IMG/VR virus record: IMGVR_UViG_3300045988_124250
DNA length: 38,456 nucleotides
DNA from: a virus
Strand: one strand, 5' to 3'
In this document: in pieces, positions 16,346-38,456 of the stretch
How the letters are laid out: every line of letters begins with the position of its first letter
Position numbering within the stretch: the first letter of the stretch is position 1
Position numbers and translations under genes: made by a program
Notes under the pieces: generated by a model
Told to the model about the DNA's origin: nothing
Database searches by the model: none
Seen by the model: the letters and a program-made list of their open reading frames with translations, nothing else

Positions 16346-16393
16346 CGATGCTCGTTAAAATTTTAACAATCCAACAGTAAAAAAATAGGACGC

Positions 16394-16878: not shown

Positions 16879-16885
16879 TTCCTCC

Positions 16886-18000: not shown

Positions 18001-18028
18001 ACAATCTTAGGGCAACAAAAAACCTCCC

Positions 18029-18507: not shown

Positions 18508-18589
18508 AATTATTTTTTAATTTTATTCCTACCAAAAAACCAAATAGGAAAAAATAAAATTAATCCTATTAATGCTAATGCTTCAAGAA

Positions 18590-18733: not shown

Positions 18734-18735
18734 AA

Positions 18736-19053
18736 TTATATTACTCCATTAATAGCATCAGTTAGTTTTTGAGGAATTTCAATTCCTAAATCATCTAATA
18801 CTTCTTTAGCGCGTAAATACTCTATTCTACTACCATATCGTTTACTCACTCGCACTCCAACATAAATTTCACCATTGTATTCAATAGTATAAAATTCCAT
18901 ACGGTCGCCAGGAGCAATACCATATTTTTGTCTTAAATTTTTAGGAAAAACAAGACGGCCTAAACTATCAACCTAATGAATAGAACCTTCATTATGAACT
19001 ATTGCTTGGCCTTCTCGCATTACAATATCAAAATAATTTTTTCCATCTTCCAT
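18736..19053 (-). CDS. AbrB/MazE/SpoVT-family DNA-binding protein with an in-frame TAG at 18973-18975
   Basis: Reading through TAG gives MEDGKNYFDIVMREGQAIVHNEGSIH-(TAG)-VDSLGRLVFPKNLRQKYGIAPGDRMEF..., a swapped-hairpin AbrB motif. TAA stop. Missed by the ORF track because of the TAG. Confidence 0.5.
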
Positions 19054-19057
19054 AAAA

Positions 19058-19351
19058 TCACTTCTCCTCCATTACATGGCATTTTTCTCCAGAAGACTTA
19101 ATGATATGCCAAATATATTCACCATCATTAATAACTCCTAAATACTTGTCATTATTATTTACATATTTATCCAATTCCCAACCTGTACCAACAGCATTAA
19201 TCTGGAAATATTTTTCAGGTGCCTTTTCATCATAAACTGCCCATACGCATGGATTATTATTTACATCCAATCCAGTAGATACAATATCAGTTAAATGGTC
19301 CATAATATGAGTTGACCCTGGAGTTTCAATTAAATATTTATAAATCTTCAT
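19058..19351 (-). CDS. hypothetical protein (97 aa)
   Basis: AT-rich ORF with a TGA stop. Confidence 0.5.
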   Translation of the reverse strand: MKIYKYLIETPGSTHIMDHLTDIVSTGLDVNNNPCVWAVYDEKAPEKYFQINAVGTGWELDKYVNNNDKYLGVINDGEYIWHIIKSSGEKCHVMEEK

Positions 19352-19352
19352 A

Positions 19353-19670
19353 TTACTCCTCTTTTAACACTTCTGCCCAAACGCGCACATCTCTATCTTC
19401 CGCGTTAATAACTTGATTTTTATTATATACAAAAATAGGACAATGTAGTGGATAACAATTTATTTTAGTATCAATATTATCCACATAAATAATCATATTA
19501 TTTTTAATATAGGGCCAATAATCTTGACCTTCACCCAATAGGATACAAGTATATCCTGCTTCAGTTAATTGTTCAAGATTAATATATTGATTAAATGATA
19601 CACCCATAAATAGAATAGTAGTGCCTCGTTTAAAATTTTTCAAAACATATTTAATCTATTTTTTAGTCAT
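19353..19670 (-). CDS. hypothetical protein; start extended through an in-frame TAG
   Basis: ATG at 19670 overlaps the upstream stop (gATGActaa). MTKK-(TAG)-IKYVLKNFKRGTTILF... Confidence 0.45.
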
Positions 19671-19869
19671 CACCATTCCATCCTTCCGGTAAAAATATAT
19701 CTAAAATTCTTTGTAATAAATCGCTTGCGGCGAATATTGGACCGCCGATAAAAAATATTAAACAAACAATTAATTTATTTTCACCGGCGCTTTGAATTGC
19801 ATCAATATATTCAAACATTACTAATGCTGAAATGATTATCCAAAAGATAACAATTACATAGGCTCCCAA
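19663..19869 (-). CDS. small membrane protein (68 aa)
   Basis: Two hydrophobic segments. TAA stop. Confidence 0.45.
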   Translation of the reverse strand: MGAYVIVIFWIIISALVMFEYIDAIQSAGENKLIVCLIFFIGGPIFAASDLLQRILDIFLPEGWNGDD

Positions 19870-20252
19870 AAATATTCACCATCCTTATATTTATTTACTC
19901 GAACATTACGGATTAGCATTCTTATAGAGCTGTCTTTCTCTAATTGATTTGCGTATCCAGGCGGTGGTGGGCTCTTGGACAAAACTGAATAAGCGATTAT
20001 ATTAGAATTTTCATAATTAGAGAAGTCTGTGATTTTTGCGAATTCCTTCGCATTAAATTGAAGATGTAATAGTAAACAACAAGGGAAACTTTCTTCAATA
20101 TTATTTGCATCTTCATAATAATCTGCTATTAAATTATATTTTTGTTCAATAGTTTCAGGGTCTAGAAGTTTAACTACTCCCTTTGTAAACAATATATTAT
20201 ATATAATAGATAATATTAATAATATACTTAATATAACAATAGCAATTACCAT
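19854..20252 (-). CDS. membrane-anchored protein (132 aa, N-terminal TM)
   Basis: MVIAIVILSILLILSIIYNILF... with an AAAAGGAGAAG SD. Confidence 0.5.
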   Translation of the reverse strand: MVIAIVILSILLILSIIYNILFTKGVVKLLDPETIEQKYNLIADYYEDANNIEESFPCCLLLHLQFNAKEFAKITDFSNYENSNIIAYSVLSKSPPPPGYANQLEKDSSIRMLIRNVRVNKYKDGEYFWEPM

Positions 20253-20279
20253 AAACTTCTCCTTTTATTTTTTATTATA

Positions 20280-20397
20280 ATAATAATACAAAAAATTTTT
20301 TTTATTGTCAAATTTTTTCCAATTAATAGTATCGTTTAAAAATTTTTTAAATGCATTTATTAAAATTTGACACCTGGAAAAATTTTTTGTATAATGA
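20280..20397. promoter_or_regulatory. divergent sigma70-like promoter pair (minus TTGACA-N17-TATTAT; plus TTGACA-N17-TATAAT)
   Basis: Plus TTGACA 20367-20372 and TATAAT 20390-20395. Minus TTGACAataaaaaaaattttttgTATTAT at ~20285-20313. Both carry the AAAAATTTTTTG spacer motif. Confidence 0.6.
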
Positions 20398-20420: not shown

Positions 20421-21485
20421 ATGATGATAAAATTAGATTATTCCTTACAAACTCCAGAAGAAAGAAATGAATTAGTCAAGAAAATATTAGAGGAAACCCC
20501 AGACCCCTCTCCTCGATATTTAGAAATATTAGGGGACTATATCATTCTTTGTATGGAGAAACAAGAGAAGAAGGAGCGTAAACTATTAACTGATAATCGT
20601 ATGGCAACAGTTAATAAACGTGAAACATCTTTTGAAGGTCTTGTTTCCCAATTTGAGAATGGCGAAGATGGAATTTATAATTTAATTACTGAAAATAAAA
20701 ATACAATATTTTAGCCTAAAATTACAATTACTAAAAAAGATATAGAAGAAATACCTCATTTAAAATAGTTGAGAGACGCCATTACTACTTGGGAAGCCAA
20801 ATTACGAGTTAGTGAAGGACGCGAAGCATTTATAATTAAACGTGCTATTATTGAAATGCGTAAAGATTAGTATGTTATTAAAAATGCGGTTCGTCGTCCA
20901 ATTGTTATGACTAAAATTACTCGTTCAAGAAATTTTATTCCATTAGAGGACACAACTTGCATTTTTGATGATGATGGTTATCCAATCCCGGATGGCATTT
21001 CACTATTAGATCCTAGAGTATGTTCTGCAATTTTATGTAATTATTCTCGTTTAAAACAAGATAGTTGGGGAGATTTTGAAAGAGATTTATGGTATATTAT
21101 GGAAGATTTTGATAATTTATGTACCATCGCTCTTAAAGATTATCCACTATATGACAGAATAGTTGAATATAAAATTGATGGATTATAGAATATAGACATC
21201 CAAAAGAGAATCCAAGAGGAATTTAATATTACCCATAGTTTAGAATATATTTCTAGTTTATGGCGCAATAAAATTCCTAAATTAATCGCTTCAGCGGCTG
21301 AAGACCAATACCTATATGATTACTATTTACATAAAGCAAAAGGTAAATATAAAAAATGTAGTCGCTGTGGGCAAATTAAATTAGCACATAATAAATATTT
21401 TAGCAAAAATAAAACTAGTAAAGATGGTTATTATAGTATTTGTAAAAAATGCCGCAATGCCAAAAACAAGGGCAAACAGTTATAA
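20421..21485 (+). CDS. hypothetical protein with a C-terminal CxxC-X17-CxxC zinc ribbon; 4 in-frame TAG
   Basis: GGAGG SD. Track fragments 20421..20714 and 20907..21188 are in the same frame, with only TAG codons between them. Ends ...CSRCGQIKLAHNKYFSKNKTSKDGYYSICKKCRNAKNKGKQL-TAA. Confidence 0.6.
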
Positions 21486-21527
21486 TTTTGAGATGCCTGT
21501 TATTGGATAGATATAAGGAGGAAAATT

Positions 21528-22724
21528 ATGGCTGTAGATAATAGTAATAAAGTATATTATTGCGAACGATGTAATAGAACTATGGGCGCTGACCAATTCT
21601 ATACATCTAATAATTTAGAAAAATATCCAAATGATGGAAAACTCCCTCAATGTAAAAAATGCATCACAATGCTTGTAGATAACTGGAATCCAGAAACTTA
21701 TATGTGGATTTTACAAGAGATTGATGTACCATACGTTCCTGATGAGTGGAGTAAATTAATGATGAAATATGGACAAGATAAATCTAAATTAACTGGTATG
21801 AGTATTTTAGGTAGATATTTGTCCAAAATGAAACTTAAACAATATAAAGATTATAGATGGAAAGATTCTGAGTTTTTATAGGAAGTGGCTAATAATAAAT
21901 TAGAGCAAACTATGAAACGACAAGGCTATGATGCCTAGCAAATAGCAACTGCTATTGCTAAATCTACCGTCGCCATTCCAGAAGAAGAATTAAAACCTTA
22001 TACTCCTGAATTACCAGAGCGTTTTAGAGATGGTGATAATTATTTTGACCAATAGAATGGTATTGAACATGACCCAGCAGATGACCTCGATTTAACAGAA
22101 GAAGATATTCTATATCTTCGTATGAAATGGGGTAAAGCTTATAAACCAGAAGAATGGGTTAAATTAGAGCAACTCTATGAAGAAATGATGAGTTCTTATG
22201 ATATTCGTGGCGCTGGTCATATTGATACATTAAAGTTAATTTGTAAAACATCCTTGAAGGCGAACTAGCTAATCGATATTGGTGATATCGAAGGTTTCCA
22301 AAAGATGAGCAAGGTTTATGATAGTCTAATGAAATCAGGTAATTTCACCGCCGCTCAAAACAAGGCTGATACAGGAGAAGCATTTGATTCTATCGGAGAA
22401 TTAGTGGCTATGTGTGAAACTGAAGGATTTATTCCTCGGTATTACACAGAAGGTCCAAAAGATAAAGTTGATGAAACTCTACAAGATTTAAAGAATTATA
22501 CACATACATTGGTCACCGAAGAAATGAATCTAGGTAATCTCATTGAAGGTGCTATCAAGAAAATGCAAGAAGAAGAAAATAAAGAAGAAGACCAAGATAT
22601 TGAAGAAGATTTAACGATGGAAGAGATTGACCATCTCAAAGATGAAGATTTAATTGAATATAATGATTTCCTTGAAGAAGAGTCTGAAATAGATGCTTAG
22701 ACTTTGAGGAATTTAGAAGGATAA
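21528..22724 (+). CDS. hypothetical protein with an N-terminal zinc finger and a very acidic C-terminus (possible small terminase or DNA-binding subunit); 5 in-frame TAG
   Basis: AAGGAGG SD. Track fragments 21528..21881 and 22305..22700 are in the same frame. TAA stop at 22722. Confidence 0.55.
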
Positions 22725-22725
22725 T

Positions 22726-24459
22726 ATGGCTTTATAGGATTTACTTGATTTATCTTAGAAGCGTAAAAAGATTGGAATTTCAGAGGACCGTCTTCGTGCA
22801 ATTATACCAGAAGCAAGATAGTACATAGCCTTTTGGAGAGAATATCCAGATATGTTTATCGACTTTATGGCAGGACCCGATGGCGGCCCTCAACATTTTA
22901 AACTCTATTTTTATTAGAGAATTTTTTTGCGCGCTGCGATGCGTCATAAATATATTTATGCAGTATTTCCTCGTGCTTATTCAAAATCTTTTTTATCAAT
23001 GATGGTCTTAATGTGTCGTGCGATTTTATATCCCAGATGTAAATTATTTATTACTTCTGGTGGTAAAGAACAAGCGGCTGGAATTGTAAAAGAAAAAGTC
23101 CAAGAAATTTGTACTCTTATTCCTGCATTTTAGAAAGAAATAGATTGGCGCCGTGGCTAGACACTTGAAGGAAAAGATTATGTTAAATATGTATTTAAAA
23201 ATGGTTCATATTTTGACAATATTGCCGCGAGAGAGTCTTCTCGTGGTAAACGTCGCCATGGTGGTTTAATCGAAGAGTGTGTTGGTGTTGATGGTGATAT
23301 TCTATCACAAGTTATTATCCCTACAATGAATATTTCTCGTATGTGTATGGATGGTACTACTCAACCTGATGAAACTCTTAATAAATCTCAAATTTATATT
23401 ACTACTGCTGGGTATAAAAATACATTCCCTTATGATAAATTAATTCAATTATTAGTTTGGGAAATTGTTAAACCTTAGCAATCCATTATTATGGGTGGTA
23501 CTTATCGTATTCCTGTTTTAATGAAATTATTGGATGCGAATTTTATTAAAGACCTAAAAATGGACGGAACATTCAATGAAAGTTCATTTGACCGAGAATA
23601 TGAAAGTAAATGGTCTGGTACTGTAGAAGATGCGTTTTTTAATGCTGAAATATTTGATAGAAATAGAATATTAAATTAGCCTGAATATGAAGCATCTGGG
23701 CGTAATTCAAAATTAGCATCTTATGTACTTGCGGTCGACGTTGGCCGTAAAGGATGTGATTCAGTTATTTGTGTATTTAAAGTGACCCCACAATCACAAG
23801 GTGGTTCAATTAAAAGTTTAGTAAACTTATATACATTGTCTGATGAGCATTTTGAAGACCAAACTATTAAATTAAAAAAATTATATTATAAATATAATGC
23901 TGATAGAATTGTAATTGATGGTAATGGTTTAGGAATTGGTTTAATTGATTATATGGTTAAAACATAGATTGACCCTGAAACCAACGAAATCTTCCCTGAT
24001 TTTGGCGTTGTTAATGATGATGATTTATTTTACAAGAAATATAAAACATCTAATACCGTATTAGATGCTATGTATATTATAAAAGCTAATGCGCCACTTA
24101 ATACAGAAGCTCACGCTATTGCTAAATCACAACTCGCTTCTGGAAAAGTAAAATTTTTAATTGATGAGCGCGTAGCAAAAAATAAACTTCTTGCTAAAAA
24201 GAAAGGTCAAACTATGACTCCAGAATAGAGGGCAGAAGAATTAAAACCATTTACTTTAACTTCCATATTAAAAGAAGAAATGATGAATTTGCGTGAAGAA
24301 ACTGAAGGAGTAAATATTATCCTGAAGCAAGCAAATAAAAGTATCCGAAAAGATAAATTTTCTGCTTTTGAATATGGACTATATTATTTAAAATTAGAAG
24401 AAGATAAAAAGAAGAAACGTAAAAAGTTTAATGCTAAAGATTGGTGTTTCTTAAACTAA
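22726..24459 (+). CDS. terL: terminase large subunit; ~10 in-frame TAG
   Basis: Reading through TAG gives ...EYPDMFIDFMAGPDG...RRHGGLIEECVGVDGD...SQIYITTAGY...FDREYESKWSG...GRKGCDSVICVF...RIVIDGNGLGIGLIDYM..., which are the ATPase and RNaseH-like nuclease motifs of TerL. Track fragments 22927, 23491 and 23782 share one frame. Alternative start at ATG 22852. Confidence 0.7.
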
Positions 24460-24469
24460 GGAGGTAATT

Positions 24470-24826
24470 ATGAGAGCGTCTAGAGGCGAAATTAAAATTG
24501 AAGAAATTTTGCGGCAAGCTGAATTACCGTTCAAGATGGAATATATTTTTCCAGATTTAAAAGCACCAAGCGGTAGACCATTACGTTTCGATTTTGTTGT
24601 TTTTGATGATGATGGTAGAATTGATTTTATTATTGAGTATTAGGGTAAATAGCATTATGAGCCTAGTGCGAAATTTGGCGGTAAAAAAGGTTTATATCAA
24701 CAACAGTATAATGATAATCAGAAACGACGTTTTTGTGCTTTACATGATTTTAAATTAATAGAGATTCCTTATACAGATGAAAATCTTATTACATATGATT
24801 ATATAATGAAATTAGCTGGATATTAA
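24470..24826 (+). CDS. DUF559/Vsr-like (PD-(D/E)xK) endonuclease-domain protein, probable homing-endonuclease-like insert; 2 in-frame TAG
   Basis: AAGGAGG SD. ...RPLRFDFVVFDDDGRIDFIIEY-(TAG)-GK-(TAG)-HYEP.. aligns with the DUF559 signature IELDGGQHYE. The second TAG sits at the conserved Gln. Confidence 0.55.
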
Positions 24827-24838
24827 GGAGGTGGAATT

Positions 24839-26500
24839 TTGGATACTAAAGAATTATCACGTTAGGAAATCATCCACTCCAAAGGATTTAATATCAGCAA
24901 TGGAACAAGTGATTATCGAACTGCTGATCCAACAGAATATCGTAAGATAAAAGTTGGGGTTCAAACATTAGATGATGCTGTATTAGATTTAGGGTCATTT
25001 GCTCGATTATATCCTAATCGTCGTGGTCCATGTCGCATGGTCACTAAAAATGATGTATTACGAGCTATGATAAATCGTGATATTGTTGAAATGCGTAGAA
25101 TTTCTAATTTATTTTATGATATTAGTGGCATTTATGAGCGAGTATGTAATTATTTTGCTTATTTGTATAGATATGATTGGTATGTCGCTCCAGAAATTTT
25201 AGATGATACAGTAAAAGATGAAAAAGTTTTAAAAGATTTTTCAAAGTTATTAAATTACTTAGATAATACTTATATTAAAAAAATCTGCGGTGATATTGCT
25301 CAAAGTATTATGAAAAATGGTTGTTATTATGGATATATAGTGCAATCTGCAAATAGTTTAATGTTACAAGAATTGCCTGCTAGTTATTGCCGTTCTAGAT
25401 ACTTTGTGGCTGGTATGCCAGCAATTGAGTTTGATATGCGGTTTTTTGATTAGTTCCCAGATCCTAATTATCGTATGCGCGTATTAAAATTATTCCCTGA
25501 AGAATTTTAGCGTGGATATGTTTTATATAAGAAAGGAAAATTACTTCCTGATATTAAGGGAGATTATAGTGGAAGCTGGTATTTACTATCCCCAGAATTA
25601 AGTGTGAAATTTAATTTTAATGGTAGCGATACCCCACCATTTATTAATTCTATTCCTGCTCTTATGGATTTAGATGCTGCTCAAGATTTAGACCGCAGAA
25701 AACAAATGTAGAAGTTGTTAAAAATTATTGTTCAAAAACTTCCAATGGATAAAAATGGTGATTTAATATTTGATATTGATGAATCTCGTGACATACACAA
25801 TAATGCTGTTGCTATGTTATCAAGAGCTATTGGCGTTGATGTTTTAACAACATTTACTGATGTTCAATCTATTGATTTATCAGATAAAAATACTACAACT
25901 ACTACAGATGATTTAGCAAAAGTTGAACGTACTGTTTATAATAATTTAGGTATTTCTCAAAATCTATTCAATACTGATGGTAATTTATCATTAGAGAAGT
26001 CTATCCTTAATGATGAGTCAACTGTTAGAAACTTGTTGTTGCAATTTAACATTTTTTTTGATAGAATAGTAAAGATGAAGGTTGCGAACAATAAGAAATA
26101 TAGTTTTAAATTTTATATGCTTGAAACTACACAATATAATTATAAAGAAATGTCAAAATTATATAAAGAGCAAACGCAACTTGGTTATTCTAAGATGTTA
26201 CCTCAAATTGCTCTTGGTCATTCTTAGAGTTTCATTTTAAATACTGCGGTATTTGAAAATGATGTGTTGAAACTAACTGAAATTATGATCCCACCATTAA
26301 TGTCTTCTACTATGAGCAGTCAAGATGTTTTGGGTAATAAAGGTTCAAACAATTAGAATAAAACACAAAATAATTCAGGAAGTAGTAATCAATAGACTAC
26401 TACAAAACAGACTACTGAAACAAAATAGTCTGGGCGACCTGAAAAGGCTGATGATTAGAAAAGTGAAAAAACCATAAAAAATAAAGAGTCAATGAATTAA
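24839..26500 (+). CDS. putative portal protein; ~9 in-frame TAG; TTG start
   Basis: AAGGAGGTG SD. 554 codons located directly after TerL. Track fragments 25037..25453 and 25715..26227 are in the same frame. Thr/Asn/Gln-rich C-terminal tail. Confidence 0.5.
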
Positions 26501-26511
26501 GGAGGTAAATC

Positions 26512-28104
26512 ATGAAGCATCAAAGTATTAAACTTGAAACGCCTTGTGAATTTATTAATGTAACTCCTATTAATCCTTTGATTTCTAAATGCCAAATTAA
26601 AGTTTGCTACGTTGGGGATGAACCAAATCGCAATCGAAGCATTATTTCTAAAGAAATTGCAAGGGAGATGGCTAACAGTCTCCCTGGCAGTCCTATTGTT
26701 GGTTTTTACAATGAATCTAATGGAGATTTTGAGGAACACAATAGAATTATTGACATTTCAAATGGTAAATTTGAAATGAAAGACACTACTAGACCTTATG
26801 GTTTTGTAGATTTAGGTGCCAAGGTTTGGTTTTAGAAATTTTTAGATGATGGCGTTAATGAACATGAATATCTTATGACTGAAGGATATTTATGGACCGG
26901 CCAATATCCAGAATGTAAGCGCATTGTTGAGTAGGGTAATAATCATTCTATGGAACTCGATGAAGGCACTTTAGATGGAACTTGGACGAAAGATAATAAT
27001 GGAAAGCCGTAGTTTTTCATTATTAATGAAGCAATTATTTCTAAACTTTGTATTTTAGGAGAAGAGTGTGAACCTTGCTTCGAAGGCTCCTCTATTACAA
27101 AGTTTTCTCTTTCATTTGATGATAGTTTTAAAAATGAACTATATTCAATGATGAATGAACTAAAAGAATTATTAAAAGAAGGAGGAGCAAAAGTGTTTAA
27201 TAGATACGCCGTGGAAATCGGAGATTCTCTATGGAGTGCTTTATGGGAGTATGTAAATAAAGCTTTCCCTGATGGCTCTAACAATTATTGCTCTAAGTAT
27301 CGTATTGATGGTGTTTTTGAAGATAATAGTCAAAAATTTGCTATTCTTCAAGACCGCGGAGATATGAAATATTATCGTTTAAACTTTTCTTTAAATGATT
27401 CTGATGGTCTTGTTCCTGGTGAAGGTTTAATTGAAGTGACTAAATCTTATAATCCAGCAGCAGAACCTCAATTTGCTTTAGAAGCGGTTGAAGCTTATGA
27501 AACCGAATTTAAGAAAAAGCAAGAAGAAGAAGAAGAAAATAAAAAGGCAAACGATGATAAGGGCGATAATTCTGACGACCCTGAGAAGAAAAAAGATGAT
27601 AATTCTTCTAAAAATAATGGTCAAAAGTCAGAAAATGAAGATGATGATCCTTCAAAAGATGATAAGGATGACAAGAAAAAGAAAAAGTATTCCTTGGATG
27701 AAATTGAAGAATATGTTAATTTAAAGGCACAGTATGAAGAGTTGCAAAATAAATTTAGTTTATTAGAGGCTGAAAATAAGACTCTAAGTGAGACTAATAC
27801 TTCTTTGATTGAGTTCAAAAATAGTATTGAGCGTAAGGATAAAGAAGCTATGATTCAATCATTCTATATGTTGTCTGATGATGATAAGAAAGATGTTATT
27901 GATAATATTGACAAGTATTCTGTTGATGATATTGAAGCAAAACTTTCTGTTATTTGCGTTCGCAACAAGGTTAATTTTAATCTTGATGATGATAATAATG
28001 ATAAAGGCCCAACTACCTATAATTTAAGCAATTTAGATAATGACAGTGATGCTGGAATGCCAGCTTGGGTCAAGGCTGTTCTAGAATCAGCCAATAAAAA
28101 CTAA
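26512..28104 (+). CDS. putative scaffolding protein (acidic low-complexity region plus coiled coil); 3 in-frame TAG
   Basis: AAGGAGG SD. Track fragments 26512..26835 and 27148..28104 are in the same frame. Contains KKKQEEEEENKKANDDKGDNSDDPEKKKDD... and LKAQYEELQNKFSLLEAENKTL. Confidence 0.5.
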
Positions 28105-28122
28105 TAAGGAGGACATACTTAA

Positions 28123-29055
28123 ATGTTTAAGGATTTTTTAAATTCTCATTTAGGCGTTGGTAAGAATCCACCTAAGTCACAGGCTAAGTATGTTGAGTTT
28201 GGTTATGGTCAGGTTGAGCCAAATCACCTGTCTGCACAAAGAACCGCTCAAATTTATGCTCAGTTGCCTGCTAACAAGGATATTAATATTCTTGAAAACG
28301 GTCAGTTTGTTAAGTACGATTACGCCGCTAATGATAATGGCATTGGTGAAGTGAATTTTACTGGCAAGGGCGAGTGGATGCTAGTTTACAATGAGATTAA
28401 GTTATATCGTGATCATCCTGATGGAACTAAGCAGTGGGATTGCGAATTTGCTATGCTAAAGGACGATTATCAGGCTCGTATTTATTCTCCATATGATTGG
28501 GAGCATACTGAGGTTGAGTATGGTGGACGTTTCTGGAATGGTGTTGATGAAACTGGTGCTGACCATAAGGTGCTTGAGCACACTGTTTCTTTAGACTAGG
28601 GCCTAAAGACCGTTACTATTGCTGGCGAAGTTTATGATGTTAAGGACAATAAGTTTACTTATAATGGTGTAGAGTATGAGATTGATCCTAAGACCAATCA
28701 AACTAAGACTCCTGTACCTGTAAAGTATGCTTATGATAAGGTTCTAACTGATGTCGCTGATATTTACGAAGAGCTAACTTGGACTAATGATCCATATAAG
28801 AAGCTTGGTGTATATCATGAGAAGCGCATGACTCCAGGTACCGCAATGGTTCCTCGTGTCTTTAAGACTAATGTTGGTGATCATTACACTACTAATATGA
28901 TTAATGAAGATAGTGTTTCTGTTGGTGACATTCTAGCTCCTGATGCCAAGGGTATTTTAGCTAAGGATGAGAGCCAGGATATGAAGTGGCAGGTTGTTAA
29001 GGTATATACTATGCCTGATGGACAACGTGGCGCTAAGATTCTACGTATTGCGTAA
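28123..29055 (+). CDS. hypothetical head protein; 1 in-frame TAG (28597-28599)
   Basis: Track ORFs 28123..28599 and 28828..29055 are in the same frame. Codon-by-codon read-through finds no TAA or TGA between them. AAGGAGG SD. TAA stop. Confidence 0.65.
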
Positions 29056-29072
29056 GAAAGGAGAGAAGAATA

Positions 29073-30179
29073 ATGTTAGATAGAAACAATTTAGTTGCTT
29101 TAATGAAGACTGTTGCTAAGGCTGATCCTTCTTCTCCTGTGGCTTACAGTTATAATGGTCAGAACCTTTCTTATGAGGCTCTGAATGATACTCTACGTAA
29201 TGAGATGAATGAGCTGGCTGGTACCAATGCTCTATATCGTGAAAATAAAAATCTGATTTTCTCAATGATTGAGGAAACTTTGGATGAAGTTCTTCCTAAG
29301 AAGGTTTCTCAGTCTTATGAGCAGTTTGCTGAAGTTAAGCAGTTTGCTCAGGGTGATAAGCCCATTTTCCGTCGTCCTCTAAATACACGCGCACGTGCTA
29401 AGCAGTTCGTAACTCGTGTTGGACTGGCTGGTATTTATGAAGTCTTCAAGCTGGGACCTGCTGAGAACGAGAGCTTTGAGGTTCGTACCTCTGCTATCGG
29501 TGGAGCTGCTCAAATTGGCTTCGAAGAGTTCTTAGATGGTCGTGTTGACTTCGCTGAAGTTACCAAGATTATTATGGATGGTATGGATGAACTGATTTAC
29601 AAGGAAGTTGCTTTAGCTTTGAAGTCTTCTATCAATCAGCTACCTCCTGCTAACCGTGTTGCTGCAGCAGGTTTCGATGAGGGTGCTATGGATCGTTTGA
29701 TTACCATCGCTTCTGCTTATGGTACTCCTACTATTTATTGTACTTATGAATTTGCTGTTCGTATGATTCCTAATGAAGCTTGGCGTTATACTGAAGCTAT
29801 GAAGACTGAGCTGTGGAATACTGGTCGTTTGGCTTCTTATAAGGGAACCAAGGTTGTTATTCTAGAGCAGGGCTTCGAGGATGAAAGTAATACCCGTAAG
29901 GTTATTGATCCTGGTTATGCTTGGATTATTCCTACTGGTGTTGATGGCAAGCCTGTAAAGATTGCTTTCGAGGGTGGCACTATTGTTGATGAATTCAGCA
30001 ATTATGATCGTTCTCGTGAGATTCAGGTTTATAAGAAGGTCGGCGTTGGTTGTATGTTGGCTAACAACATTTGCTCTTATGTTGATACTTCATTAATGGG
30101 TCAGATGTATACTTGGAACTATGATGGTGTAACTGGTAAGGTTGCTACCTATGATGGACGTCTAAGTGGACAAATTTGA
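29073..30179 (+). CDS. putative major capsid protein (368 aa), TAG-free
   Basis: GAAAGGAGAG SD. Sits between scaffold and connector genes and is followed by a strong hairpin plus T8 terminator. Higher GC content and preferred-codon usage. No TAG codon. Confidence 0.55.
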   Translation: MLDRNNLVALMKTVAKADPSSPVAYSYNGQNLSYEALNDTLRNEMNELAGTNALYRENKNLIFSMIEETLDEVLPKKVSQSYEQFAEVKQFAQGDKPIFRRPLNTRARAKQFVTRVGLAGIYEVFKLGPAENESFEVRTSAIGGAAQIGFEEFLDGRVDFAEVTKIIMDGMDELIYKEVALALKSSINQLPPANRVAAAGFDEGAMDRLITIASAYGTPTIYCTYEFAVRMIPNEAWRYTEAMKTELWNTGRLASYKGTKVVILEQGFEDESNTRKVIDPGYAWIIPTGVDGKPVKIAFEGGTIVDEFSNYDRSREIQVYKKVGVGCMLANNICSYVDTSLMGQMYTWNYDGVTGKVATYDGRLSGQI

Positions 30180-30206
30180 TTTAAACCTTAATATAGATTT
30201 CATTTA

Positions 30207-30248
30207 AGGGGAGAAGGGATTTACTCCCTCTCCCCTTATTTTTTTTAG
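30207..30248 (+). terminator. intrinsic terminator after the capsid gene
   Basis: GGGGAGAAGGGA-tttac-TCCCTCTCCCC followed by TTATTTTTTTT. Confidence 0.75.
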
Positions 30249-30267
30249 AGAAAAAGGAGATAATAAA

Positions 30268-30855
30268 ATGATTCGTTCTGAAGATATGTTTAATGTAAAA
30301 AATAGAAGTACTAGTGTTGTTGTATATAGAATTCCTGAGAGTAATTTGAGACGCGAGTGGGCGCCCGGTGAGGTAAAGCGCATTCCATTTGGGGAACTAG
30401 AAAAATTGACTTATCAACCTGGTGGACGTGAATTAATTGCTAATTTCTTACAGATTATGGAAAATGAAGTTACTGACGATTTAAATGTTCATCGTGAGCC
30501 TGAATATAATATGTCAGAAGAGCAAGTCCGTGATTTAATTCTTAACGGTTCTATTGACGCATTTTTAGATGCTCTTGATTTTGCTCCTATTGGAGTTATT
30601 GATTTAATTAAAACTATGTCTGTTCAATTGCCTATCACTGATATGGCTAAACGTGAAGCTTTAAAGGCTAAGACTGGTTTTGATGTAGATAAGGCTATCG
30701 AAAATGATCGCGCTAGTAAAGAAGATGATAAAAAGGAAACTATTGCAGATAAGCCAGCTGAAAGACGTGTTACAGAATCTGCTCCAGCAGGACGTCGTAC
30801 TTCTGGAAATGCTTATAAAGTAGTAAAGCAAACTGAAACTAAATCTGCTGAATAA
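30268..30855 (+). CDS. hypothetical head-associated protein (195 aa), TAG-free
   Basis: AAAAAGGAG SD. TAA stop. Confidence 0.55.
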   Translation: MIRSEDMFNVKNRSTSVVVYRIPESNLRREWAPGEVKRIPFGELEKLTYQPGGRELIANFLQIMENEVTDDLNVHREPEYNMSEEQVRDLILNGSIDAFLDALDFAPIGVIDLIKTMSVQLPITDMAKREALKAKTGFDVDKAIENDRASKEDDKKETIADKPAERRVTESAPAGRRTSGNAYKVVKQTETKSAE

Positions 30856-30876
30856 TAAATAAATAGGAGGCGTGTC

Positions 30877-31464
30877 ATGGGAACTAAATTCACTGATATT
30901 TATAATCGCTTCCTTGGGAAAATTACTGATGACCTTTATATTGAATTAACTCCAGAAGATACAATTAAAGATTTACGTGCAATACTTCTAAATATTTTAC
31001 CTGAATTTGAATTTCCTAGATTTGATATTTATGACTATACTATTGATTAGGAAATTAAATATGAAAATGAAATATTAGAAGATGATTTTGTAATTGGTCT
31101 TTTGTGGGAAGATGAAAAAGATGAAGAATCAGAAATCCGCCCTCCTCGTGTAATGATAGAACATTCATCTTTTGGAGCTGAATTAACACCGGAGGAAATT
31201 AATATTTTAGCTATATTGATGATGGTAAATTGGGTATAGCGCCAAGTTACTTCTATTGAACACACTCGTATGAAGTATAGTGGTTCAGATTTTAAAATGA
31301 CTTCATAGGCTAATCATTTACAAAAATTGATGTCTTTACTGAGTGAATGTTAGAGACAATCATTTCATATGCAACGTTTATATAAACGTCGTAAATTAGT
31401 AGAAGGGAAATACGAATCCAATTGGGGCGTATTTCATTATAAAAATTATCCTTATGATAACTAA
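30877..31464 (+). CDS. hypothetical structural (connector region) protein; 4 in-frame TAG
   Basis: AGGAGG SD. Read through codon by codon to TAA at 31462. Confidence 0.5.
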
Positions 31465-31492
31465 ATATCATACAGATATTTCCGATGAAGTC

Positions 31493-31753
31493 ATGGAAAA
31501 AAATATAGTAAGATTAACTAATCAACTGTGGAAATTAATCCCTATGAGAGAAAATGAAGAAGATTGGGATAAACAATTAAATACAGTTATTATTGAAATT
31601 GCGGGCTTAAATGAAATTTTTATTTAGGACCCGCGATTTTTATAGTTGCTTAGTAAATTAGAAGGATTAAATGTTTTAAATGATATTGAATTCTCAATTT
31701 ATAGAAAAACTGTATTTGAATGTATTAGTTTATTATAGGAGATTAGAAAGTAA
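31493..31753 (+). CDS. hypothetical small protein; 3 in-frame TAG
   Basis: Read-through ORF of 86 codons. Its stop overlaps the next start (TAATG). Confidence 0.4.
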
Positions 31754-32907
31754 TGCCAAAACGTCCAGAAAGAATGGAAAAATTATTACCTTATGGTTTA
31801 AATACTAATAAAAGTGTAAATCTTGTAGGGGCTCGTTTAGGTGATACAAGTATAAAAATTCCTTAGCCAGATTCAGTTGATGGTAGTTTAAATATGGCTA
31901 AACGATTAATGAGTGCGGGTGGTTTTGCCCAACAGTAGCGAATGATCAAAGATAAACGACATTCGTTAGATCAAGCCACTAAGTATTCTTATTAGGCGGC
32001 TTGGGTACGTAAATGTGCAGCTACAGAGGTAGAAACTAAATAGGAAAAAAATATTTTACCTCCAGTTAGAGCATTAATGAATCCTAATAAATTAAAATAG
32101 GATTATGATGATAAAGTTATTTCGATTGGATTTGAACATAAATTTAATTGCGGAGATGTATTTGAATGGTGTAATACTGGAACATATTGGTTAATTTATT
32201 TACAAGATTTAGATGAATTAGCTTATTTCCGCGGAGATGTTCGTAGATGTACTTATTAGATTCCATTTATGATGGATGATGAATTAAATGTAGTTTATGT
32301 GGCTAGTCGAGGCCCAGTAGAAACTAAAATTGATTATATTCAAAAACATACTACTAGTGTAGATAATCCAAATTATTCTTTAAATTTATTAATTCCTAAA
32401 AATGAAAAAACTTTGAAATTTTTTAAGCGTTATTAGAAGTTTTATATTTGGCCGGAAGATGGGTCAGTTTATGATACCTGCTGGAGAGTTGAAGCTGTAA
32501 ATAATATTAGCATGACTGGCGTTATTGAAGTAAACGCTGTTGAATATTATGCTAATGAATTTACTGATGATCGAGACGCAGGATTAGCTGATGTATTTAA
32601 AATACCCGATCCAATATTAAAACGTAAAATTATAGATGATAACAAAGATAATAATAAAATTTTAAATATTGTTGGTGAAACCTTTATTAAACCTAAAAAA
32701 GAATATGATTTTAATTTAAATATTAAAAATATTCGAGGGACTTGGAAAATTGAAGGTAATGATGTTCCTGTTCAAATTATTAGCGAAGGAACTAATGATA
32801 AAGGATTTGCAACAATTAAACTTAAATGGGATTCTACTTATAGTGGTTAGTTTGATTTAGTTTATGGAACTAGTCGAAAAACTATAGTAGTAGAATCATT
32901 GTTTTAA
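31753..32907 (+). CDS. hypothetical structural protein; ~8 in-frame TAG
   Basis: Track ORF 32512..32850 is the C-terminal fragment in the same frame. TAA at 32905. Confidence 0.5.
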
Positions 32908-32929
32908 TGAGTAAAAGGAGATTGAAAAC

Positions 32930-33532
32930 ATGAGAATAGACGGATATCATATTCCAAAATCAAGTTTTCTATCTATGGAAAAAGACACTGGGATTATTGT
33001 TAATGAAATATTAAAAAATAATCGTTTAAAAAAATTATTATATTATACCACTAGTGATGCTATGGAAAAACCTAATCTTACTGAAGATTAGTCTTTAAGT
33101 TTACTAGGGACTAATATTAAAATAGTTCCTAAATTATATGTTGATGGTTCTGTTTTAAATTATGTATTAATTAATTTTGATAATTTTATTCCCAGTGAAA
33201 ATCCAGAGTTTAGAGATAACACTATTCAATTTGATATTGTATGTCATTTTGATCAATGGAATTTAAGAGATTATGCATTGCGCCCATATAAAATTGCTGG
33301 AGAGATTGATTCAATGTTCAATTTGAAAAAATTGACTGGTATTGGTTATTTAGAATTTGTGGGTGCGACTTAGATTGTTTTAACCGATGAATTTGCTGGG
33401 TTATGTTTGATGTATCGCACTGTTCATGGTGGCGAAGATGAAAAATATATGCCAACTTATCCTGATAAAAATAGCGGCAAAATTAAAGAGGAACAATTTA
33501 TTAAAGAATTCAAGGATTACATTAGTAAATAA
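32930..33532 (+). CDS. hypothetical structural protein; 2 in-frame TAG
   Basis: AAAAGGAG SD. TAA at 33530. Confidence 0.5.
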
Positions 33533-34260
33533 TGGATTACCGCTTAAATTTAATTTGCGGAACTGATATGTTGATTCCTGAATGTAATTTAGTCGCTCAT
33601 CAACCAAGGATAAAAGAAATTTCATTTATTGGGGAATCTGATTTTTTTATTGGAGCATAGACCCTCTGTTTGCATAAAACAATGTTTATAGAGGACAAAA
33701 CTATTCTAGACAGTATCAATAATTTTTAGATATTTATGACGATAATGTTATAGGATGAAACAAAGGATAAAAAAGCTAACATTTTAAATGTTTTAAATTT
33801 ATTATTCCCATCATACAAAATAAATGTGACGCCGAATTCATTGTTATTTATGAAGGAAGGTGTTCCTCCAATTACAGTAGATGGAAATAATTTTGAAGCA
33901 TTACAAGAAGTGTTGCGTTTAATCTTTTGTATGCACAATGGCCCGATGGATTAGTAGGCTTTCAATCCTGCCAACGATAAGGCTCGTGAGATTGCTCAAA
34001 AGCTAATGCGAGGGAGACAGCGAGTTGCCGCCCAAAACGGTAATTCGAATGTAAGTGTTTTTAGTTAGTATATGTCAATCTTGACTATTGGATTGTGTTC
34101 AATGTCATTATAGGATTTGACAAATCTGACAATGTTCCAATTATATGATTTAATGGAGAGATATACGCTATATACTGCTTGGGACCTGGATGTACGCTAG
34201 CGTTTAGCTGGCGGTAAACCTGAAGGGACCCCGGATAATTGGATGAAAAACATTCATTAA
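33532..34260 (+). CDS. hypothetical protein; 9 in-frame TAG, including a TAG-TAG doublet
   Basis: The start overlaps the previous stop (TAATG). ...MHNGPMD-(TAG)(TAG)-AFNPANDKAREIAQKLMRGRQRVAAQNG... TAA at 34258. Confidence 0.4.
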
Positions 34261-34287
34261 TTAAAAATACAAGGAGGAAATAACACT

Positions 34288-35364
34288 ATGAAATTCGGTG
34301 TCCGCGAAATTTGTGATGTTGTATTAAAGGCTAAGTCAGCACAGAAAATCGGTAATAAGGTGTTCTATGCTGGTGAACCTGTTATTTATTTTGACACCCT
34401 GAAAACTTCTAGTTTAGAAGGTGCTGCTACCACTGTATATGCACAAGGTGGTCGTGGTAACTCTCGTTTGGTAGCATGGGAAGGTGAAAGAACTCTGACC
34501 TTCACTATGGAGGATGCTCTAATTTCTCCTGAAGGATTTATGATTCTTTCTGGTGCTGGCCTAATTGCTGCTAATGCCGATAAGCCAATCTATCAGCATA
34601 TTACTGAGACTGTTGATGCTAGTGATTCATTACGTTTCAAGTTTGATGCTACTGGATTTAAGTTTGCCGTTTATACTGAGAATAAGCCTTATCTACCTGG
34701 TAATGCTGGTGATAACTTTGCTTATGTAATGTTTATGAAGAATGGTGAAATTACTACTGAGCCTTATATTCCTGTTCATGAGGGTGATGATACTGCTATT
34801 GATAGTGAAGCTATGCCTGAGACTGTAACTGACCTAGATGGTAAAACCTACTATCGTGTAGCTGTTATGGATCATAAAATGTATGTTGGTTTAGCTTCTT
34901 ATGAAGATGAGCAGAATAAAGGACATAAATATGAGAGTGAAAGTGGCGACCCGGCTTACGATGTAGTCACTCTACCAAATCGTCTAAAGTTTGATTCTGT
35001 GCTAGTTGATTATTATACTGAGCGCAAGTCTGGTGCTACTCAGATGGAAATTACTGCTGATAAGTTTGGTGGCAACTATTATCTTGAGGCTTCTACTCTA
35101 TTCCGTGATACTAACGGTGTAGATATGCCTGCTGAATTCATTATTCCTAACTGCAAGATTCAGTCTAACTTCACCTTTACTATGGCTTCTTCTGGTGACC
35201 CAAGTACATTTACTTTCACCTTAGACGCATTCCCTGATTACACTCGTTTCGATCATAGTAAGAAAGTTTTGGCTGCAATTCAAGTAATTGAATATCTGGA
35301 TAATGATGACTTACATCGTCATAGTACAGTTCACCAGAAATCTCACGATAGTTATAATTGGTAA
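34288..35364 (+). CDS. putative major tail protein (358 aa), TAG-free
   Basis: AAGGAGG SD. Followed by a strong terminator. Lies upstream of the two chaperone-position genes and the tape measure. No TAG codon. Confidence 0.5.
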   Translation: MKFGVREICDVVLKAKSAQKIGNKVFYAGEPVIYFDTLKTSSLEGAATTVYAQGGRGNSRLVAWEGERTLTFTMEDALISPEGFMILSGAGLIAANADKPIYQHITETVDASDSLRFKFDATGFKFAVYTENKPYLPGNAGDNFAYVMFMKNGEITTEPYIPVHEGDDTAIDSEAMPETVTDLDGKTYYRVAVMDHKMYVGLASYEDEQNKGHKYESESGDPAYDVVTLPNRLKFDSVLVDYYTERKSGATQMEITADKFGGNYYLEASTLFRDTNGVDMPAEFIIPNCKIQSNFTFTMASSGDPSTFTFTLDAFPDYTRFDHSKKVLAAIQVIEYLDNDDLHRHSTVHQKSHDSYNW

Positions 35365-35383
35365 TTTAATTAAAAAATTTTAT

Positions 35384-35420
35384 GGGGAGAGGATTTATTC
35401 CTCTTCCCATTTTTTTATTT
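35384..35420 (+). terminator. intrinsic terminator, near-duplicate of the 30207 terminator
   Basis: GGGGAGAGGA-tttatt-CCTCTTCCC followed by ATTTTTTTATTTT. Confidence 0.75.
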
Positions 35421-35433
35421 TAGGAGAAAAAGA

Positions 35434-36525
35434 ATGGTTAATCAAGAAGGCATAGTTTTTGGAGGATATTTTTTATATGAAGCAGAATTTAAAAAAATCT
35501 TTCAAGAATTTTGGAATAGTGAATTAAAAAATATTTTTATTGAAAAAATATAGATTATAATTAAAAATTATCTAACTGAAGTAAATGGTAATATATTGGC
35601 AGCAAAAAATCCAAAAGCATTATATAATTCTTGGGAATAGATTAATACTGAAGTATTTGGAAATACTCCAGTTTCTTTATTGGGTATTTTAAAATGGGAT
35701 AAAGAATATCATTATACTTTTGTTAACAAAGAATCTGATTTAATAAATAGCTATACTTCTTAGAAAATACAAGTTAATAAGACATTAATGAAAGAATACC
35801 GAACAACTTTAAATACAATATATTAGAGTGATATTGAAATGGCATTAGAAAAACATTTTGAGGATATGAAAAATTCAATTAATAAAGTGAAATTAACTAA
35901 GGTAGAAGGGCATAATATACATTTAGCTTTAGGTAAATATTATAAAAATACAGAATGGTATAAACGAGTTCAAGATACACATATGACTAATAAGAGTTTA
36001 TTTGATATATTTTATAGTGGGAATAAAGTAGCTGCGCAAGGATAGATGTATGATGCTTTTATTAATCATATTAGTAGAAAACATGTAGAATATTTAAGAG
36101 CTTTAAATAATTTAGAAAATCCTATAATAGTTTCTCCATTCGAGAAATCGGTTTATAATGAAGAGGGGCGTTGGAATTTTATCCAATTAGTTATGGATTC
36201 TTTAAATTCGACGGCTTGGTATCGTGGAGGCGATGCTATTGCGGCGGATAATCGGACTCGTAAAATATTATTTAATATTTAGGTAAAATCAGGAACAAAA
36301 GGACGTAGTTGGGATATTGCTAGTATTTAGTTTTTAACTTTTATTAATACTTTAAATTCTTATTTAAATAAAACGGGTTAGGACATAGCGACATTTTTAT
36401 ATGAAAATTTAAAAATTACAATGGCGACATCTATTGATAGCAAAAAAATTGATGAAGATTTGGAAAAAGAAATTTTAGATAATGTAAGAAAAAATTTGAA
36501 ATTATCTGGGTTGACAATAAACTAA
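35434..36525 (+). CDS. hypothetical protein at the tail-assembly-chaperone position; ~8 in-frame TAG
   Basis: TAGGAG SD. Track fragments 35839..36045 and 36046..36282 are in the same frame. TAA at 36523. Confidence 0.45.
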
Positions 36526-36569
36526 TTTTTTAGTATAATATAAATAAGTGTAAAAGGAGGATTTTTGAA

Positions 36570-37094
36570 ATGGCAAAAGTATCATTTTCAAAGTTAAATT
36601 TAAATAAAAATACAGAAGTATCAACATTTGAATGGGGAGATTAGATTATTGAAGTTAAGGATTACCTTCCTATTGGAGATAAGTTAAATCTTATTTCAGA
36701 GATTATTAATGATTCTATTGATAAGAATGGTTATTATAACCCTGCTCGTGTATATCTTCATACTATTTTAAAAATGATTATGGCATATACAAATGTAAGT
36801 TTCACTGACAAGCAAAAAGAAGATCCAAAGAAATTATATGATTTAGTAGTAGGCTCTGGTTTTTCTGCTAAGGTGTTTGGAGAAATTAATCCAGGAGAAT
36901 ATGCACAAATTAAAAGTTGGGTCGCGGAAACTATTCATTCAATTTATGAGTATAAAAATTCTGCGGCAGGTATTTTAGATATTATTTCTACTGATTATAA
37001 AGATACAACATTTGATATGGAGCAATTAACTAATGATATTCAGAATCCTGAAACATTAGGATTGTTAAAAGATGTTTTGACCAAGTTGGGATAA
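36570..37094 (+). CDS. hypothetical protein at the tail-assembly-chaperone position; 1 in-frame TAG
   Basis: AAAAGGAGG SD. Track ORF 36774..37094 is the C-terminal part. Followed by a terminator. Confidence 0.5.
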
Positions 37095-37151
37095 TTAAAC
37101 TATTTAATTTTTTAAAATTAAATAGGAATAATCAAGTGTATGGGTGTGAGA

Positions 37152-37190
37152 AGATTATTTCTCACACCCATTTTTTTTTGTTTATATTAT
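37152..37190 (+). terminator. intrinsic terminator
   Basis: GGGTGTGAGAA-gattattt-CTCACACCC followed by ATTTTTTTTTG. Confidence 0.7.
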
Positions 37191-37210
37191 GAGAGAAAGG
37201 AGTCCCGTTT

Positions 37211-38456
37211 ATGGCAAAACAACTAAATGTCGCATTAGATTTTACTGCGAATACCACACAAGCAAAATAGCAGATTTAGGAATTACAGCAGTTATTAACT
37301 AAAGTAGCATATAGTACTGATTTAGGTATTGATCCCAGTCAAATGAAAGAAGCTTCTGCGGCGGCTAAAGAACTAGCTATTCATTTAAATGAAGCATATA
37401 ATTAGAAAACTGGTAATTATGATTTAAGTAAATTAAATGCTAGTTTAGCTAAATCAAAAACTAATGTGACTGAATTATCTACCAGCTTACTCCAAGCGGG
37501 AACAACTGGACAACAAGCATTTATAAAATTAGCTCAATCAATAGCAGCTGCTGATTAGCCAATGATTACATTAAATGCTCGTTTATAGGATTTTTTAACT
37601 ACTGTTAAAAATACAGTTAAATGGCAAATTTCTTCAAGTATGATTCATGGTGTAATGGGAGCTTTACAAGGAGCTTATCATTATGCTTAGAATTTAAATA
37701 GTTCATTAAATGATATTCGAATTGTTACTGGTCATAATATTGACTATATGGATAAATTTGCTGATAAAGCAAATAAAGCAGCAAAGGCATTAAGCACTTC
37801 TACATTAAATTATACTGATGCTTCTTTGATTTACTATCAACAGGGCTTGTCAGACAAAGAAGTAGAAGATAGAACTGCGGTCACAATTAAAATGGCTAAT
37901 GCTGCTGGCGAAAGTGCAGATAAAATATCAGATCAATTAACTGCTGTCTGGAATAACTTCTATGATGGATCATAGTCATTGGAATATTATGCTGATGTTA
38001 TGACTGCATTAGGTGCAGCTACTGCATCAAGCACAGATGAAATAGCAGCAGGATTAGAAAAATTTGCAGCTGTGTCTAACACAGTAGGTTTAAGTTATGA
38101 ATATGCTACTTCAGCTTTGGCGACTGTAACTGCTACGACTCGTCAATCTGCTGATGTGGTTGGTACTGCATTCAAAACATTATTTGCTCGTATTCAAGAT
38201 TTAGAGTTAGGTAAAACTCTTGATGATGGTACTACATTAGGCAAATATTCTCAAGCTCTTGAAACTGTTGGTGTTTCTATTAAAACAGCAGACGGTGGGT
38301 TGCGAGAGATGGATGATATTCTTGATGATTTAGGTGAAAAATGGAATTCATTTGACGCTGAAGGGAATCCATTAATTTCTAAAGATGCTAAAGTGGCATT
38401 AGCTCAAACTGTTGCTGGTGTTCGTCAATATACACAATTAATGGCATTAATGGATA
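37211..38456 (+). CDS. tail tape measure protein, N-terminal part (continues beyond the window); at least 7 in-frame TAG
   Basis: AAAGGAG SD. ...DKFADKANKAAKALSTSTLNYTDASLIYYQQGLSDKEV...DEIAAGLEKFAAVSNTVGLSYEYATSALATVTATTRQSADVVGTAFKTLFARIQDLELG... is the typical tape-measure core. Confidence 0.65.

Follow-up and report, generated by a model that had tools for sequence, protein, structure and literature searches.

The window, by which we mean the whole stretch of DNA analysed here, comprises 38,456 nucleotides of a viral genome (IMG/VR record IMGVR_UViG_3300045988_124250). As judged from sequence, its late structural and packaging genes very probably use genetic code 15, wherein the amber codon TAG specifies glutamine, only TAA and TGA act as stops, and a phage-encoded tRNA with a CUA anticodon, tRNA(CUA), decodes TAG. 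The source is a human-gut tailed phage with an SPbeta-like structural module, and its cultured relatives include Enterococcus EF1/H1-like and Geobacillus E3-like phages. The underlying observation is correct, and TAG-to-glutamine recoding of this kind is already known from gut phages; the details presented below are therefore refinements rather than a new kind of system.

The window is 100% identical to ENA ERZ28619677, OBRE15-1_SAMN03283272_METAG-scaffold_15 (201,374 bp). Position 1 of the window is the terminus of this contig of ~201 kb, and thus the window represents a contig end. Many near-identical contigs of 195–201 kb are found in human-gut assemblies.

Reading frames of the late genes

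Under the standard code, the plus strand from 20.4 kb onwards contains fragments of open reading frames (ORFs) that mostly end at TAG, and the next fragment starts at once in the same frame. When TAG is read as a sense codon, the plus strand between positions 20406 and 38456 resolves into 18 back-to-back ORFs that tile 97% of the interval (Table 1). The 5,832 codons of these 18 genes include 75 TAG and not a single TAA or TGA, while the two off-frames of the late interval carry 51 and 143 TAA plus TGA codons per 1000. Individual late genes hold from 0 to 10 in-frame TAG codons within the window. There are 17 complete late genes, 14 of which hold TAG, and together the 17 contain 67 TAG and 139 CAA or CAG (CAR) codons; where TAG is used at all, it makes up 37% of the glutamine-type codons. 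A GGAGG-type ribosome-binding site is located 5–10 nucleotides ahead of almost all late starts. The public annotation of the window lists 48 genes, whose stops are TAA (35) or TGA (13).

These counts agree with an earlier, sequence-only reading of this DNA, which had proposed that TAG is a sense codon in the late genes, that the standard ORF track reports pieces of genes, and that a Shine-Dalgarno sequence sits at the correct distance from each start. No overlooked TAA or TGA interrupts the late-gene frame within the read-through intervals. The same reading had described the recoding as extending throughout the late module, which holds for 15 of the 18 genes and fails for the remaining three, namely the capsid gene, the gene starting at 30268 and the tail tube gene; these are the genes that it had itself listed as free of TAG (under the names MCP, L9 and MTP). 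Its worked example at 28123–29055 is indeed one ORF interrupted by a single TAG at 28597–28599, but the second piece begins at 28600 and not at 28828. The last gene, which encodes the tape-measure protein, extends beyond the window. Its public call on the contig of the window is 2,757 amino acids long, and the 2,718 codons that were read include 56 TAG and no TAA or TGA, in line with the claim that this protein is contiguous only when TAG is translated.

The three TAG-free genes contain 25 glutamine-type codons, and the absence of TAG among them is improbable (P ~1e-5) given a TAG share of 37%. All three are richer in GC than the other late genes and favour CAG. The capsid and tube genes have a GC content of 39–41%, which is intermediate between the early and late genes, and they prefer CAG over CAA. 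The avoidance of TAG by genes of this abundant virion type suggests that TAG decoding is somewhat costly for the most abundant proteins, or that the synthesis of these needs to be partially independent of the code switch considered below.

Sequence evidence for glutamine at TAG and the phage tRNA(CUA)

With TAG masked as X, the late proteins were aligned to those of three cultured phages with standard-code genomes (Enterococcus H1, Geobacillus E3 and Alicyclobacillus KKP_3916). Fifteen late proteins, including the terminase large subunit (TerL) and the portal protein, align straight through their TAG sites to standard-code phage genes. The homologs of TerL and portal run across these sites and do not end there, as had been anticipated from motifs that become contiguous only with TAG translated. 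Glutamine is found opposite 19 of the 84 aligned TAG sites (23%), compared with a background of 4% and with 27% for the window's own glutamine codons. When residues are compared by likelihood, with substitution frequencies taken from the same late-protein alignments, glutamine is the maximum-likelihood residue at the 84 sites and exceeds the runner-up, arginine, by 21 natural-log (ln) units. Lysine and glutamate are the next most common residues at the aligned sites.

Variation among close strains leads to the same assignment. Five strains with 88–97% nucleotide identity to the window keep the TAG position in 268 of 295 comparisons. Among the 40 swaps between TAG and a sense codon, 28 involve CAG or CAA, the latter of which is two steps away from TAG, and none involves TGG, TAC, TAT, TTG, TCG, AAG or GAG, which are the other single-step neighbours of TAG. 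Further away, TerL genes in contigs of Bacillota metagenome-assembled genomes (MAGs) are 66–87% identical to that of the window and carry from 0 to 14 in-frame TAG codons (L224 and L225 versus L227-L230). Two TAG-free genes among these relatives have CAA or CAG at 6 of the 10 TAG sites of the window's TerL. At the level of sequence, these data show that TAG stands for glutamine, the residue that the earlier reading had favoured. To judge from the TAG counts in TerL, the extent of recoding shifts quickly among relatives.

Genes beyond the window were reached by a walk through other contigs of the phage lineage, for which the outermost proteins then known on each side were joined into queries. 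The TAG-rich late block extends by another 70 kb or so, across genes for very large tail proteins. On the other side, past the early genes, there is a second AT-rich, TAG-containing block with YcaO and radical-SAM genes, followed by a tRNA array. This array (contig L213, positions 2926-17611) comprises 28 tRNAs that cover 19 amino acids plus the CUA anticodon, and it has no tRNA-Gln. The tRNA(CUA) is located at L213 14108–14181 and is identical in three contigs of the lineage (L213, L214 and L215), such that the CUA-anticodon tRNA for which a search of the rest of the genome had been proposed does exist in the lineage. The genome that bears the array is known under three names, IMG/VR 3300045988_160359, ENA CHAT13-1 scaffold_6 and ULOZ01046417, which are joined by 100% identical overlaps, and it shares 85–97% nucleotide identity with the window's lineage along a chain of overlapping loci.

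The 74-nucleotide tRNA(CUA) forms a normal cloverleaf with a 5-bp anticodon stem, a 4-nucleotide variable loop, a TTCGAAT T-loop, an encoded CCA end, a U1·U72 mismatch and G73. A U1 with a weak 1–72 pair, together with G73, is characteristic of bacterial tRNA-Gln, and these features serve here as a lead rather than as a test. Descent of this tRNA from a recent duplication of an array neighbour was considered and discarded, as the identity to any neighbour is at most 73%.

The tRNA genes of the array are interspersed with small ORFs, some of which contain TAG, and the surrounding genes encode YcaO, radical-SAM, C1 peptidase, SDF transporter, formate/nitrite-transporter-like, DUF2828 and major-vault-protein-like proteins. 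Inside the array (L213 5235-5387) is also a 50-amino-acid ORF that resembles ArfA (Pfam PF03889, E=2e-5, 24.3 bits versus a cut-off of 25.5 bits), carries the motif KGKGAYTRKQKH and occurs in three contigs. ArfA rescues ribosomes in an RF2-dependent manner. The ORF may have a bearing on ribosome stalling that follows amber read-through; a literature search for work tying ArfA to phage stop-codon recoding returned nothing relevant.

Early genes, alternative readings and the code switch

The region from 1 to 20.3 kb differs from the late block in codon use, base composition and promoter content. The early gene set consists of the public calls, since a gene finder fitted to the codon usage of the AT-rich late block did not work on these GC-rich sequences. 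There are 31 early genes, 27 of which lack TAG, and the total of 5 TAG codons compares with 102 CAR codons; thus 4 of the 31 early genes hold TAG, versus 14 of the 17 complete late genes. The GC content is 43–51% per kb in the early region (1000-18000), with individual genes reaching 57%, and 27–35% in the late region (19000-38456), with a value of 25–34% for the late block itself. Perfect promoters of the form TTGACA-17-TATAAT (12/12 matches) occur 24 times in the early region, usually one per gene and 19 of them on the minus strand, and twice in the late region. Most of the early ones carry an extended -10 TG, and there are many terminator hairpins as well. Between positions 1 and 20000 there are 92 promoter-like sites, versus 38 expected from shuffles.

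As TAG had evidently been treated as sense in the public annotation, early genes that might have been missed were looked for. One conserved ORF of 107 amino acids was found that is immediately followed by TAG (14064→13744, Table 1). Strains L002, L003 and L005 (96–97% nucleotide identity) encode the same protein without change, L006 (93%) has a single V→M change, and almost all strain variation within the ORF falls at codon position 3. The TAG is kept in five of five strains. A GC-rich hairpin (13714-13735) and a perfect TTGACA-17-TATAAT promoter for the next gene (13701-13729) are located right behind it, and in L006 a one-nucleotide insertion after the TAG abolishes the in-frame TGA that is otherwise located four codons downstream. 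This TAG is probably the working stop of the ORF, which supports a model wherein the standard code is used first. The earlier statement that no gene in the window terminates with TAG holds for all 48 public calls but probably not for this ORF.

Other early candidates for termination at TAG were rejected. The candidate at 10029–10388 (minus strand) lacks a start codon and a ribosome-binding site and has an implausible composition, those at 17982–18296, 18179–18457 and 14284–14472 (minus strand) accumulate substitutions without codon periodicity, and the remainder overlap called genes. There are long uncalled stretches in the early region, at 17200-18600 and also at 2154-2773, 3652-4423 and 6109-6946. 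Strain differences between 17.2 and 18.6 kb lack codon periodicity, and Rfam gave no match there. The publicly called plus-strand gene at 18060–18509, which contains two TAG codons, is doubtful for want of this periodicity. A GIY-YIG homing-endonuclease gene (9157-9900, minus strand) has 37% GC amid GC-rich DNA and a perfect promoter of its own (9936-9964), and, provided that its start has been called correctly in the public annotation, its codon 20 is an in-frame TAG, the only one in the gene.

Several points weigh against code 15 with a phage-encoded decoder. ARAGORN and Rfam gave no tRNA or other RNA match in the window, and ARAGORN found no tRNA in the 10 kb on either side of it. The tRNA(CUA) was read on other contigs of the lineage rather than on the window's own, it is not a close copy of the two tRNA-Gln sequences with which it was compared (58–65% identity), and ARAGORN names it 'Pyl', on the basis of the anticodon alone. 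The genome was read over ~165 kb, and the other ~36 kb may hide release factors, synthetases or further suppressors. The case is built on nucleotide and protein sequence comparisons.

Among the competing explanations, the one that deserves most attention, although we consider it unlikely, is that TAG is only partly suppressed and still works as an inefficient stop, so that TAG-containing proteins are made in smaller amounts or later. The absence of TAG from the capsid, 30268 and tube genes would be consistent with this idea, as would the early ORF that seems to stop at TAG and the failure to find an RF1-inactivating function in the ~165 kb read. However, with 10 TAG codons in TerL, 9 in portal and at least 56 in the tape-measure gene, yields of these essential proteins would be vanishing unless suppression were efficient, and TAG accounts for 37% of the glutamine-type codons in the genes that use it. 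It is far less probable that the host itself reads TAG as sense and that the phage simply mirrors the code of its host. The only clue to the host's identity is that relatives are binned with Bacillota MAGs, which leaves room for such a proposal, but most early genes avoid TAG, one conserved early ORF ends at it, the phage has its own tRNA(CUA), and close relatives have TAG-free TerL genes. Moreover, a survey of gut phages reported only the reassignment of TAG to glutamine and of TGA to tryptophan in phages with a code other than the host's (bioRxiv 10.1101/2021.08.26.457843).

Equally improbable is a different residue at TAG, such as tryptophan, tyrosine, leucine, serine, lysine, glutamate or pyrrolysine. 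The ARAGORN label 'tRNA-Pyl' and the rank of lysine and glutamate at the aligned sites could be cited in its favour, but each alternative residue is at least 21 ln units behind glutamine, strains swap TAG for CAG or CAA and not for its other single-step neighbours, and glutamine is the only amino acid that the tRNA array lacks. For pyrrolysine in particular, the canonical cloverleaf with its 5-bp anticodon stem and TTCGAAT T-loop does not have the atypical architecture of tRNA-Pyl, and there are no pyl genes among the Pfam annotations of the loci read. Finally, the fragmentation of the late genes under the standard code might be attributed to pseudogenes of a decaying element or to errors of sequencing or assembly, for instance C→T miscalls that turn CAG into TAG. 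Such an origin is all but ruled out: the frames are broken by TAG alone and never by TAA or TGA, hundreds of independent assemblies (195–201 kb) share the same TerL, and TAG is kept in the great majority of strain comparisons (268/295), with exchanges between TAG and CAA requiring two base changes.

Many gut phage clades have late genes with TAG-to-glutamine recoding and encode suppressor tRNAs, and a switch of code in mid-infection has been modelled for them (bioRxiv 10.1101/2021.08.26.457843). Under this published model, which is the likeliest one for the phage described here, infection would open with the standard code. The early genes fit the standard code of the host and would be transcribed from consensus host-type promoters, with TAG probably serving as a stop in at least one of them. 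The suppressor tRNA(CUA) would then accumulate, and full-length structural proteins would become possible only thereafter. This tRNA fills the glutamine slot of the array and would presumably be charged via the host glutamine pathway. The sequences themselves show the in-frame TAG codons, their glutamine meaning and a tRNA(CUA) in genomes of the lineage; the timing of the switch, the route of charging and a copy of this tRNA on the contig to which the window belongs are inferred.

A further possibility, which we regard as no better than speculative, is that the code switch constitutes a translational gate on late transcription and is assisted by a dedicated rescue factor, with TAG read as a stop early and as glutamine late. 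Perhaps the mRNA for the first late gene (20424–21485) is made early from its host-type promoter, with the four TAG codons in the gene delaying the protein until the suppressor tRNA has become active. The ArfA-like protein could clear ribosomes that run off message ends after amber read-through. If the annotation of this gene as a sigma factor is true, a late transcription factor would be translated only under suppression. The annotation comes from a PHROG label only, and searches of Pfam, NCBIfam and PDB sequences gave no support for it.

Related phages and individual genes

The code-15 clades covered by the gut phage survey are Lak, crAss-like, Sapphire, Agate, Garnet, Amethyst and Topaz (bioRxiv 10.1101/2021.08.26.457843). 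Sapphire is a TAG-recoded clade with large genomes, whose recoded modules are spread over the genome and whose representative derives from run SRR1747018; dedicated synthetases are usually absent from recoded phages (bioRxiv 10.1101/2021.08.26.457843). The 'OBRE15' label of the window's contig may refer to the study that yielded this run, and what favours placement in Sapphire, namely genome size, code and possibly a shared study, is circumstantial. The phage described here resembles these code-15 phages in having TAG in structural genes, early genes that are compatible with the standard code, a phage tRNA(CUA) and no dedicated synthetase in the regions read. It differs in its SPbeta-like structural module, its division into GC-rich early and AT-rich late regions and its ArfA-like ORF, features for which no description was found in that survey.

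By pairwise identity, the best cultured matches to TerL are those of the EF1/H1 phages (52%) and phAss-1 (44%), and the portal of phAss-1, for which the name Phassvirus has been proposed, is 39.5% identical to that of this phage. The closest records in phage collections include an unannotated 12 kb clone from human faeces, MT836163 (53–61% amino-acid identity). The group that contains phAss-1 and Enterococcus phage EF1 is partly TAG-recoded (PMC10607447). Both phAss-1 and the present phage come from the human gut, read TAG as glutamine, encode a suppressor tRNA-CUA and have EF1 as a cultured relative. However, genomes of the phAss-1 group are 133–138 kb long (PMC10607447), in contrast to about 200 kb here, and the GC content is 44.5% for the whole phAss-1 genome versus ~38% for this window. 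Two suppressor tRNAs are located beside nrdD in phAss-1, whereas a single CUA tRNA was found here, in a large array, and the CUA tRNAs of the two lineages are unrelated in the anticodon arm. In the present lineage, nrdD (L109 18823-20976, minus strand) has a glycyl-radical motif and no TAG and is located just beyond the end of the late block. A guess based on phAss-1 synteny, that a suppressor tRNA would be found next to this gene, was abandoned, as there is no tRNA within 10 kb of it.

The standard-code relatives provide the clearest view of gene order. The late module is syntenic with those of Enterococcus phages H1, EF1 and VRE9, Geobacillus virus E3 and Alicyclobacillus phage KKP_3916, from the gene upstream of TerL through the tape-measure gene, and in H1 the synteny includes the small endonuclease-like gene after TerL. 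These relatives have no in-frame TAG, their proteins are 24–52% identical to those of the window, and their genomes are 120–142 kb long. Two more distant relatives from other metagenomes (L075 17076-17173 and L123 12714-12802) present yet other arrangements. One has a tRNA with a UCA anticodon, which might be a suppressor of TGA, and the other has a CUA tRNA that follows a tail-fibre gene at a distance of 2 kb downstream. Recoding may thus differ from one relative of this phage to another.

The public products on the window's contig are already full-length, and the window's TerL is identical to public protein P0002, which carries glutamine at each TAG site. This exact sequence has been recorded for 232 contigs, and a variant that differs by one percent for 705. 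Annotation of such genomes requires translation table 15, as an ORF track made with the standard code shreds the structural genes, which is a known pitfall (PMC10607447; PMC11210395). The phage adds one more well-resolved case in which infection would begin in the host code and a suppressor tRNA of the phage's own would be needed for the virion genes. For the timing model, it offers an early ORF that probably ends at TAG, abundant virion proteins that avoid TAG, a TAG-bearing leader gene of the late block and an ArfA-like ORF beside the suppressor.

The gene identities in Table 1 are taken from PHROGs and Pfam annotations on the public products of the window genes. The late module contains TerL, portal, an SPbeta-like set (YonG_N, YonD_N, YonB capsid, YomW, YomV and YomU tube) and a PhageMin_Tail tape-measure protein.

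Table 1. Features of the window, with the number of in-frame TAG codons in each gene
Position	Strand	Feature	TAG codons	Evidence and remarks
1..20300	29 of 31 genes on −	early region, 31 small publicly called genes		mostly 44–57% GC
14064→13744	−	107-amino-acid ORF, conserved, publicly uncalled		probable stop TAG at 13741–13743; in the 13669–14066 interval
20367..20395	+	sigma-70-type promoter with a perfect match to TTGACA-17-TATAAT		immediately upstream of the first late gene with TAG; 20–38.5 kb has only one further 12/12 match
20424..21485	+	first gene of the late block	4	phrog_5767 'sigma factor', E=1e-53; aligns across TAG sites to Enterococcus H1
21528..22724	+	YonG_N-like protein	5	Pfam PF27269 on public product; phrog_3314
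22726..24459	+	terminase large subunit	10	residues 10–548 align to standard-code TerL, ~50% identity
24470..24826	+	small homing/HNH-endonuclease-like gene between TerL and portal	2	phrog_9084, 6e-27; phrog_559, 2e-26
24839..26500	+	portal	9 (8 with the public-call start, ATG at 25037)	phrog_2739, E=1.7e-81; tblastn
26512..28104	+	YonD_N-like head protein	3	Pfam PF27290 on public product
28123..29055	+	head-module protein	1 (28597–28599)	this codon is CAG in 5/5 non-identical strains
29073..30179	+	YonB-like major capsid protein	0	Pfam PF27364; 41% GC, CAG the preferred glutamine codon; 12 CAR, 0 TAG, P=0.004
30268..30855	+	head-module protein	0 in the window strain	the codon of strain L003 that corresponds to window position 30451 is TAG
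30877–31464	+	head-completion/tail-assembly gene	4
31454–31753	+	head-completion/tail-assembly gene	3
31753–32907	+	head-completion/tail-assembly gene	8
32930–33532	+	YomW-like head-completion/tail-assembly gene	2
33532–34260	+	YomV-like head-completion/tail-assembly gene	8
34288..35364	+	tail tube (YomU_Tube)	0	Pfam PF27173; 39% GC
35434–36525	+	tail-assembly gene	8
36570–37094	+	tail-assembly gene	1
37211..38456	+	N-terminal part of the tape-measure protein (PhageMin_Tail)	7 in the window	gene runs past the window end

The small gene between TerL and portal had been described as DUF559-like, with its second TAG aligned to an invariant glutamine. The label could not be upheld, as the DUF559/Vsr-like family PF04480 gives no match even at E≤1 and the only Pfam match is to DUF2726, at 20.4 bits and under the cut-off of 24.7 bits; the PHROG matches at about 1e-26 are instead to homing and HNH endonuclease families. 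The glutamine itself was well placed, as the Enterococcus H1 homolog has N and Q at the first and second TAG sites, respectively. A strong intrinsic terminator (30185-30235) is located right behind the capsid gene, wherein GGGGAGAAGGG…CCCTCTCCCC is followed by T8, and it is kept in all strains.

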